64,000 nt of DNA from Candidatus Neptunichlamydia sp. (GCA_965233865.1 OZ247587.1:224001-288000), one strand, 5' to 3'. Positions 31,508-32,640 are shown, counted from the stretch's first letter. Notes: generated from the sequence alone by a model not told the origin. Numbers and translations are program-made.

Positions 31508-31993
31508 TTGTTTGAGAAAATAATCTCTATCCCCTATATTCCCCGAATACCAGAGTTAAAGAAGGACTTAAACACCGTGGTTTTTTGTAGATATATCCCA
31601 ATTTTACTTGGATCACTCTTTATTTCGGTTGTTTCCTCCTCTGTCTTTGCTTCTGTTACCCCTCAAACATTACACGCTTGCTACTTGCTAGTTCTAGATG
31701 GGCATAAAGAAGAATCTTCTAATGCTTTGATGTCTTCTTTCGAGTCTCCGAGTGCAGATCTAGAATTTTTGTGTAATCAATTCTTAACATGGTCTGCTGG
31801 AGATAATTGTGAGATGAGCTCCCCTCTGAATAAGTCAGCTTATTTTGTTATTCAAGGAGATAAAAAGAGTGCTGTAAATGTGATTGAGGGTTTCTTTCCT
31901 TCATTCTCAAAAGACATTCATGATTTCTCTGAATCCTTTTTTGATTGGGGATTGTCTGTTATAGAGCTTGATAAATTGGTTAGAGAAAAATGA
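31508..31993 (+). CDS. Putative exported protein with a two-fold internal repeat
   Basis: Signal-like segment ending SSVFA; two roughly 40-aa units Y.V..G.K....N....F.S.S.D...F...F..W. Confidence 0.65.
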   Translation: MFEKIISIPYIPRIPELKKDLNTVVFCRYIPILLGSLFISVVSSSVFASVTPQTLHACYLLVLDGHKEESSNALMSSFESPSADLEFLCNQFLTWSAGDNCEMSSPLNKSAYFVIQGDKKSAVNVIEGFFPSFSKDIHDFSESFFDWGLSVIELDKLVREK

Positions 31994-32322
31994 TTCGATG
32001 GTTTCTTGCTTTATTTTTGGTTTTTGGCACTAGTGGTGTGTTGTTTGCTGAAGAAGAGAACGATTCGGATGAAAAACCTCATAGCTCAGCTGAGATAGCT
32101 CTTGATATAACTAAAGGCATTGTGTACTCCGCTGGTGCAGGTGTCGCTGCTGCAAGACTAAATGTCCCTGGTGCTATTGGCGGGATTATTGCTGGAGCTG
32201 AAAGCTTTAAAAAAGCAGGGGATAAAGCTTTTGAGAATATCGAATATGAGAGAGATAGGGACAGTAATCAGTATGAAAGAGAAACAGAAAATGATCGTGA
32301 TAGCTGGGATAGGAATTACTAG
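31990..32322 (+). CDS. Small exported Gly/Ala-rich protein with ENDRDSWDRNY tail
   Basis: Sec-like signal MIRWFLALFLVFGTSGVLFA, hydrophobic Gly-zipper hairpin, acidic tail. Confidence 0.75.
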   Translation: MIRWFLALFLVFGTSGVLFAEEENDSDEKPHSSAEIALDITKGIVYSAGAGVAAARLNVPGAIGGIIAGAESFKKAGDKAFENIEYERDRDSNQYERETENDRDSWDRNY

Positions 32323-32640
32323 ATGGAAAAACTGCCTTTTATAGTTGCTGCCTTATTGTTCCCCTATCAGCTGATTAGAATATTGAGATCCAAGTCACCT
32401 CAAAGTCGATCAGTGGATATTTTGATAACAGCATTAATTATTCCTATGTGTCTAACATCCTGGCCTGTACATTTAAATTTTCGTATTGCTTTCTCCTTGA
32501 TCAGTGTGGTTTTTTCTGCTGTCATGCTTTGTGAGTATTTCAGGTGGAAAAATACCGTCTACTTAATGACCTTTTTGTTTCTTCTTATTGTGTCTGGGTT
32601 GCTCATATTAATGTTTCTTTTCGATTTTTCAAACCTTTGA
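32323..32640 (+). CDS. Small multi-pass membrane protein (immunity-like)
   Basis: About four hydrophobic segments; ATG directly after the upstream TAG. Confidence 0.75.
   Translation: MEKLPFIVAALLFPYQLIRILRSKSPQSRSVDILITALIIPMCLTSWPVHLNFRIAFSLISVVFSAVMLCEYFRWKNTVYLMTFLFLLIVSGLLILMFLFDFSNL

Follow-up and report, generated by a model that had tools for sequence, protein, structure and literature searches.

A C-terminal helical hairpin domain with adjoining membrane-protein genes in Candidatus Neptunichlamydia and other chlamydiae: a putative polymorphic toxin/immunity family

In a 64,000-nucleotide stretch of the genome of Candidatus Neptunichlamydia sp. (GCA_965233865.1 OZ247587.1:224001-288000; hereafter the window, meaning the whole stretch that was analysed), two gene modules each encode a small protein with a similar eleven-residue C-terminal tail, and in both modules the gene of a small membrane protein follows directly. 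The two tailed proteins share a C-terminal helical hairpin domain, and I read the modules, with some reservation, as toxin/immunity pairs of the polymorphic-toxin kind. Module 1 occupies positions 31508..32640 on the plus strand. It begins with a gene of about 138 codons (gene 1, 31577..31993, with an alternative TTG start at 31508) whose product has a signal-peptide-like N-terminus and whose stop codon overlaps the start of the next gene (ATGA). This next open reading frame (ORF), at 31990..32322, encodes the first hairpin protein (copy 1, A-type, 110 residues); it ends in …ETENDRDSWDRNY, followed by a TAG codon that directly abuts the ATG at 32323 of its membrane-protein partner (32323..32640, 105 residues). 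Module 2 lies at 46289..47170 on the minus strand, where the second hairpin protein (copy 2, B-type, 46775..47170, 131 residues) ends in …HENDRDNWDRDF and its TAG likewise directly abuts the ATG of a 161-residue partner (46289..46774). The hairpin and partner genes are ORF calls. A preliminary description of this DNA had spoken of two-gene modules; copy 1, however, is the middle gene of a three-gene unit, as the upstream signal-peptide gene keeps its position in relatives.

The tails, as read from the ORF translations, are ENDRDSWDRNY in copy 1 (32287..32319, plus strand) and ENDRDNWDRDF in copy 2 (46778..46810, minus strand). Five of their codons differ, two synonymously (GAA/GAG and CGT/CGC) and three with conservative replacements (S/N, N/D and Y/F), so that the tail sequences, the TAG-ATG junctions and the character of the codon changes are all as quoted in the preliminary description. 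The pattern ENDRD.WDR occurs exactly twice in the six-frame translation of the whole 1,830,388-base genome, at the ends of both ORFs, and a profile of the hairpin family, when run against the genome's own ORFs, finds these two genes only (E 2e-28 for copy 1 and 8e-25 for copy 2). Confinement of both motif and profile to two ORF ends genome-wide excludes chance. A looser form of the motif recurs in relatives and is linked there to small membrane-protein genes.

Apart from their tails, the two proteins had been regarded as not visibly alignable. This view has to be abandoned, as their last 40 residues align by BLASTP (E 5e-6) and, with relatives as intermediates, A- and B-types can be aligned over their full mature length, the whole hairpin included. 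The domain common to both copies is a C-terminal antiparallel helical hairpin of about 70 residues, with a moderately hydrophobic tip that is rich in Ala, Gly and Ser, and with conserved polar residues at its base (H...A on helix 1, E-Y-N-E on helix 2). The best 19-residue Kyte-Doolittle window scores 1.33 in copy 1 and 1.13 in copy 2; it is at least 1.0 in 79 of 88 family members and at least 1.6 in 16 of them. In the AlphaFold 2 model of copy 1 (mean pLDDT 80.9), a signal-like helix (residues 3-17) precedes helix 33-55, an NVP turn and helix 59-103, and the last seven residues, tail positions 104-110, are unstructured. GxxxG runs can be read in its sequence (G61-G65-G69). The earlier label of an exported glycine-zipper protein thus suits copy 1, with its signal-like N-terminus and GxxxG runs, but not copy 2, whose hairpin is not Gly-rich and which lacks a signal peptide and starts with a conserved N-terminus, MSIEPVTS... 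Homologues of copy 1 show 57-79% identity, and its A-type relatives are proteins of about 110 residues with a signal-peptide-like N-terminus; the B-type relatives of copy 2 have 114-166 residues, no signal peptide, and the start M-S-I/V-E-x-V-x-S.

Among 1.84 billion representative proteins, the domain profile finds 84 matches at E <= 1e-3, 37 of which reach E <= 1e-10. The domain forms the C-terminal end in 82 of these 84 representatives (with a median of 1 residue after the match), and the two exceptions are repeat proteins that look spurious. More than 60 residues precede the domain in 43 of the 84, and a crude hydrophobicity test detects a hydrophobic N-terminal stretch in 44. What precedes the domain varies: a signal peptide alone, a B-type leader, by itself or together with another domain, a domain of about 150 residues in proteins of about 240, a domain with the motif Q-P-x-x-I-E-x-W, TPR-like or Sel1 repeats (Sel1 above the cut-off in two members, TPR in two with weak matches below it), or an RHS core. 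The RHS core model TIGR03696 matches one member, P0069, at residues 259-329 (E 7.5e-19), with the hairpin domain at 332-403, and another, P0039, at residues 150-220 (E 7.3e-20), with the hairpin domain at 223-293; both matches lie above the curated cut-off and end two residues before the hairpin domain. When the RHS-linked P0039 is left out of the profile, it still obtains 40.4 bits (E 3e-5 at library size) and P0069 obtains 31.2 bits (E 0.02), so that the link to RHS proteins is not circular. The preliminary description had taken the tail for the constant element and hence saw the reverse of usual polymorphic toxins. Instead, the domain of about 70 residues is constant, the N-termini vary and the tail is present in 13 of the 84 representatives; a constant whole C-terminal domain behind varied N-termini is the usual polymorphic-toxin arrangement.

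The domain was found in 13 of 401 genomes of the phylum, the source genome included, and in 5 of the 14 further genomes searched from the genus. The relatives that bear names are all chlamydiae, from the Simkaniaceae (Ca. Neptunochlamydia) and other Chlamydiales, and as far as the few named matches and one phylum sample reach, the family is found only in Chlamydiota. Pfam and NCBIfam scans of the window proteins, the partners and 41 family members returned no family for the domain or the partners. At E <= 1, the Pfam scan of the window proteins gave one sub-threshold match that is unrelated to glycine zippers, and neither Gly-zipper_Omp (PF13488) nor Rick_17kDa_Anti (PF05433) matched either window protein; a language-model look-alike search of the ESM Atlas gave a weak lead towards glycine-zipper likeness, with a score of 0.82 that is below the reliability marks. 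The NCBIfam RHS models did not match the two window proteins at E <= 0.1, RHS being present only in the two distant members. The best match of the family profile among PDB sequences has E 0.43, to unrelated enzymes. Foldseek against the PDB found generic helical matches only, both for the hairpin (best E 1.0, AhlB) and for the modelled partner of copy 1, and a wide VIA-align search with the hairpin gave Z values up to 9.2, to generic hairpins; its likeness to PspA, Vipp1 and ESCRT-III (Z 7.3-9.0) falls within values common for helical models. Chlamydial inclusion-membrane (Inc) proteins are defined by a type III secretion signal followed by a bilobed hydrophobic domain with two full transmembrane segments. 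I rejected this identity for the hairpin proteins, as their best hydropathy values of 1.33 and 1.13 stay below 1.6 and the N-terminus of copy 1 is Sec-type. A literature search, largely outside subscription journals, found no publication on the hairpin family in chlamydiae. The hairpin domain thus appears to be an undescribed family, which would make it a new toxin-domain family within a known kind of system.

For the partners, gene neighbourhoods were read at 27 loci with a family member (16 from the phylum sample and 11 fetched through the tail) and at 30 loci fetched by a profile of the copy-1 partner; individual loci are referred to by L numbers. At all 16 loci of the phylum sample, a small membrane ORF borders on the family gene or overlaps it, although it is frameshifted in L008, and one also borders on it at 9 of the 11 tail-fetched loci; in L027 and L028, which represent a single gene pair, the tailed gene is preceded by the small membrane gene. 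These partners fall into at least five classes without detectable mutual similarity. Class PA (about 105 residues, with a conserved W-P motif) stands behind copy 1, class PB (142-161 residues) behind copy 2, and class PB2 (125-141 residues) behind other B-types. Class PF (91-95 residues, mostly 95) follows the 240-residue forms and overlaps their last seven codons, and class PG (69-75 residues) is encoded upstream of a 220-residue form. That the classes might be distant relatives was considered and rejected, as sequence comparisons gave no similarity; for PA and PB, the hhalign probability is 0.3%.

The AlphaFold 2 model of the copy-1 partner has four helices (4-22, 26-44, 53-75 and 78-104; mean pLDDT 86.1), and four hydrophobic segments can be read in the sequence of the copy-2 partner. 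The preliminary description was therefore correct in placing a small, roughly four-transmembrane protein behind each copy, and in finding the two partners not alignable. A relationship of the PA partner to PQ-loop/SemiSWEET proteins was dismissed, as it has no Pfam match and four helices instead of three. Its homologues at E <= 0.01 number 12 with the window's own included, of which 11 are unnamed or 'hypothetical' and one is a named hypothetical protein of Ca. Neptunochlamydia. The copy-2 partner is 39% identical in a MAFFT alignment to the gene product behind the B-type protein of L002 (35% by BLASTP, E 8e-16). In the forms of about 240 residues, the last seven codons (…W-W-x-x-W-K-stop) double in a second frame as the partner's start, M-V-A/G-x-L-E…, and this dual-coding overlap of 22 nucleotides is conserved in L006, L007, L009, L012, L013, L015, L016 and L017. 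The partner's start overprints the tail of these forms, which is the alternative Trp tail described below, and so places an additional nucleotide constraint on it.

The PA class is more widespread than the hairpin domain, being present in 31 of 400 phylum genomes versus 13 of 401. A domain gene is present at 15 of the 30 loci found by the PA profile, and at 14 of these it abuts a PA-class ORF; the exception is L051, where the ORF next to the domain gene is a weaker, PA-like match (E 4e-4) and the opposite strand carries the best PA match. Partners occur in tandem (L035, L039, L045), without a detectable putative toxin gene (L030, L035, L040, L046-L048), and beside a degraded one (L039, L049 and L026, where the partner is itself truncated). 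The reverse situation is seen in a metagenome-assembled genome (L008/L019:1776-2080), in which the PA partner reads as frameshifted after about 25 codons beside an intact A-type gene, perhaps through an error of assembly. Behind the RHS-linked domain stands a partner of the PA class (hhalign 93%, E 3e-7), which means that the domain and the partner of copy 1 both have homologues in an RHS cassette.

Counterparts of gene 1 lie upstream of the A-type genes in L003, L004, L018, L019 and L037, and are split or partial in L010 and L022. Gene 1 has no Pfam or NCBIfam match. It is not a split-off version of the N-terminal domain of the 240-residue forms, to which it shows no similarity (hhalign probability 1.6%). 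Its product is possibly a periplasmic accessory or a second immunity protein.

In its wider form, D-x-D-S-W-D-R/K-D/E-Y, the tail is, as judged from its distribution over the sequences, a clade-specific addition, for it ends 13 of the 84 representatives, whereas 25 end in an alternative Trp tail (K-x-W-W-E/Q-F-W-K) and the remainder in neither. The looser pattern DxD[SN]WD[RK][EDN]Y matched 38 stretches in a genome collection, 4 of them in relatives, and 58 in a metagenome collection, 7 of them in relatives. Apart from the tail, 19 tail-bearing proteins show 24-81% identity to the window's A-type protein; the columns that never vary among them are the D, D, W and D of the tail. The tail accompanies PA, PB, PB2 and PG partners, and PA partners also accompany tail-less putative toxins. 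Accordingly, it is not the partner's recognition element, nor does a partner class require it.

The preliminary description had also considered that the tail, which contains the sequence GATAGG, might be kept as a translational coupler or ribosome-binding site. The tail DNA speaks against this. In 13 distinct tail DNAs, the R/K codon is AGG in six, AGA in two, CGC in one, AAA in two and AAG in two; the arginine at the fourth tail position is encoded by CGT, CGC, CGA or AGA, and the serine by codons of both families (TCA, TCT, AGC, AGT). The distance from stop codon to partner start is 0-27 nucleotides in the 11 tails with a downstream partner, and at the remaining two loci (L020 and L027) the conserved small membrane gene is upstream of the tailed gene; L020 has in addition a membrane ORF that starts 58 nucleotides downstream. 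Synonymous change together with variable spacing indicates selection on the tail peptide rather than on a ribosome-binding site. The tail may be a sorting signal, another suggestion of the preliminary description, or a docking motif; its acidic character and its free carboxyl terminus on an aromatic residue resemble the latter, with colicin TolB boxes and SSB tails as loose analogies.

In L026 (1033-1248), what is left of an A-type gene is its last 14 codons (…ETENDRDNWDRDY), and a PA partner is cut short after 56 codons; this remnant stands behind an unrelated 180-codon gene, and its DNA similarity to the window begins at 32277, the first codon of the tail region. It is the sole case in favour of the tail being a recombination joint, and as a single case the boundary may be an accident of deletion.

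Taken together, each module probably encodes a toxin and its immunity protein, which belong to an undescribed family of the polymorphic-toxin kind, with a membrane-active hairpin as the toxin and a membrane protein as its partner. This reading is based on the constant C-terminal domain behind interchangeable N-termini, RHS included, on the small membrane-protein gene that abuts the domain gene, and on the tandem and orphan partners and patchy distribution. A toxin/immunity system was among the proposals of the preliminary description, and it gains weight from the C-terminal position in 82 of 84 representatives, directly behind RHS cores in two, and from membrane partners in tandem or alone. 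Polymorphic toxins, RHS-linked and Sec-type ones included, are listed for chlamydiae in the part of a survey used here (PMC3482391). Copy 1 is proposed as a membrane-active toxin and copy 2 as one that leaves by a non-Sec route, with the PA and PB partners as their proposed immunity proteins. The composition and fold of the hairpin and the nature of the partners suggest a membrane mechanism. Copy 1 would be exported by Sec into the periplasm, and its hairpin tip would insert in a membrane there or after release onto another cell. Inserted hairpins could then oligomerise via their small-residue faces and dissipate the membrane potential. The four-helix partner would block hairpin action in the producer's inner membrane, and the product of gene 1 may keep the toxin soluble in the periplasm. 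Lacking a signal peptide, copy 2 would exit by another route, and the protection given by its unrelated partner would act from the cytoplasmic side. The tail would form a separate short module, under selection at the protein level and independent of partner class; its most likely role is that of a docking or address peptide recognised by a factor that all tail-bearing toxins have in common.

The hairpin is read as a membrane toxin with an immunity partner because the nearest precedents, namely Tse5, EsxX and the ionophore toxins of contact-dependent inhibition (CDI), are membrane-depolarising C-terminal domains with membrane-protein immunity. The immunity protein of Tse5, Tsi5, is a small membrane protein that is encoded adjacently. 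According to excerpts of the reports on Tse5 (RhsP1) of Pseudomonas aeruginosa, the domain C-terminal to an RHS core makes pores in membranes and causes the membrane potential to collapse (PMC9637101, PMC10684867), much as the hairpin domain stands behind an RHS core in two family members. However, the family profile finds no Tse5 chain among PDB sequences at E <= 10, the window proteins are without an RHS part, and no type VI secretion context was seen around them. In the portion of the report on EsxX of Staphylococcus aureus and its immunity proteins ExiCD and ExiAB that was used, a glycine-zipper membrane-depolarising domain, C-terminal to a trafficking domain, is toxic from both sides of the membrane, polytopic membrane immunity proteins are also encoded by orphan genes in non-producers, and there is a separate soluble immunity pair (PMC12744356). 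The unrelated partner classes, the orphan partners and perhaps a soluble gene 1 product resemble this arrangement, the parallel with gene 1 being a conjecture, whereas EsxX belongs to a Gram-positive type VII secretion system and has an LXG domain; the two are likened by description alone. The CDI ionophore toxins (CdiA-CT) are described, in the sections consulted, as polymorphic membrane toxins at the C-terminus, whose entry domains vary and whose immunity proteins, CdiI, are membrane proteins that have diverged strongly (PMC11630599). They differ in being predicted five-helix bundles delivered by CdiA, as opposed to a two-helix hairpin, and no CdiA/CdiB context was seen here. The Caulobacter proteins CdzC and CdzD use type I export and have their own immunity gene. 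They are portrayed, in extracts of the source, as small glycine-zipper bacteriocins that kill neighbouring cells (PMC5380434), but the window proteins are without a Pfam glycine-zipper match at E <= 1.

Both modules lie within a stretch of about 26.7-48.6 kb that is crowded with transposase, resolvase and integrase fragments; this setting, together with the presence of the domain in 5 of 14 other genomes of the genus, gives the family an accessory character. The mobile genes at approximately 26700..48600 comprise IS66 (three ORFs), an IS200-like Y1 transposase, an IS4/5 DUF4096 fragment, a Mutator-family fragment, a resolvase and a phage-integrase fragment. The 60-bp end of an insertion sequence (IS), of which blastn finds seven copies in the genome, lies upstream of each module in the same relative orientation: at 31391..31450, 58-127 bp upstream of module 1 and facing away, and at 47308..47367, 138 bp upstream of module 2 and facing away. 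These ends could reflect an outward promoter, co-mobilisation or simply the IS-dense setting. Promoter and terminator scans gave counts no higher than in shuffled sequence, and a search of sequencing runs turned up no RNA data. Elsewhere in the window, the interval 959..11159 contains further PD-(D/E)XK transposases and a TraI-like helicase, and two IS200-like Y1 transposase genes of 147 codons (19370..19810 and 48088..48528) have near-equal Pfam scores. Directly downstream of the copy-2 partner is a Ser/Pro-rich, apparently disordered ORF of 149 codons (45820..46269, minus strand), which has no family match and is absent behind the homologous pair in L002.

Several points weigh against toxin/immunity pairs. 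Toxicity and neutralisation are inferred from sequence. The hairpin is moderately hydrophobic, with 1.6 reached in just 16 of 88 members and in neither window copy, and its conserved polar motifs are atypical of simple pore formers and could indicate a different activity. With lengths of 294 and 406 residues, the two RHS proteins are short and may not build a full RHS shell. If the frameshifted partner in L008/L019 is real, the intact toxin-like gene beside it would not be lethal to its producer. Mutually dissimilar partner classes are unusual for homologous toxins, and obligate intracellular bacteria have limited occasion for interbacterial attack. In addition, the PDB profile search found no sequence relation to solved toxins, Tse5 included, and the fold matches are generic.

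Alternatively, the hairpins may be membrane effectors delivered to the eukaryotic host, with a partner that only protects the bacterium during production. In that case the B-types might use type III secretion, the other forms vesicles or lysis, and the tail might be a linear motif docking a host protein. All named relatives are indeed chlamydiae, which are obligate intracellular; the B-types combine the absence of a signal peptide with a conserved Ser/Glu-rich N-terminus, and the tail is independent of partner class. Endosymbionts reportedly use such toxins against their hosts. Several toxin-domain families are listed in chlamydiae in the consulted part of Zhang et al. 2012 (PMC3482391). However, Sec-type N-termini prevail in the family (44 of 84 by the crude hydrophobicity test), orphan and tandem partners better fit a defence against the toxins of other bacteria, and Pfam scans of window proteins and family members found no host-interaction domain, which leaves host effectors an unlikely explanation. 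I regard it as still less probable that hairpin and membrane protein form a non-toxic structural or stress-response complex of the inner membrane, PspA/Vipp1-like in shape. Such a complex would agree with the likeness to PspA, Vipp1 and ESCRT-III, which is generic and of a strength common for helical models, and with the intact hairpin gene beside a frameshifted partner in L008/L019. It would sit poorly with a domain directly behind RHS cores, with the patchy distribution (13 of 401 genomes), the association with IS elements, the orphan partners and degraded hairpin genes, and the combination of one domain with unrelated partner classes. Finally, the roles could be reversed, with a harmful small membrane protein, holin-like or a small membrane toxin, that the hairpin regulates or neutralises. 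Overproduced small multi-pass hydrophobic proteins can be toxic, and the genes are tightly coupled, by TAG-ATG junctions or by the 22-nucleotide overlap in the 240-residue forms. But the hairpin occupies the payload position of RHS proteins, and partners occur alone or in tandem without a hairpin gene, where a toxin lacking its antidote should not be tolerated; a reversal of roles is therefore very improbable.

As toxin/immunity pairs, the modules would add a toxin domain and at least five classes of immunity-like membrane proteins that are unnamed in Pfam, NCBIfam and PDB sequences. They belong to a phylum of bacteria with an intracellular life in eukaryotes, for which genetic work is difficult; should the proteins prove toxic, they would give access to the study of how co-infecting chlamydiae compete or of how membranes of the host are attacked. 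The eleven-residue tail, kept across proteins that are less than 30% identical and have unrelated partners, is a compact candidate for a docking or targeting element. More speculatively, and with rather little confidence, I suggest that these are Sec-exported or RHS-borne mini-toxins with which chlamydiae conduct conflicts in a shared host cell, and that one branch carries a portable C-terminal address peptide. The role of this peptide would not depend on the immunity protein; it might, for example, dock onto a conserved factor, periplasmic or of the host, that is needed for entry or activation. If true, a trafficking tag at the toxin domain's own C-terminal end would be a new element in the architecture of polymorphic toxins.

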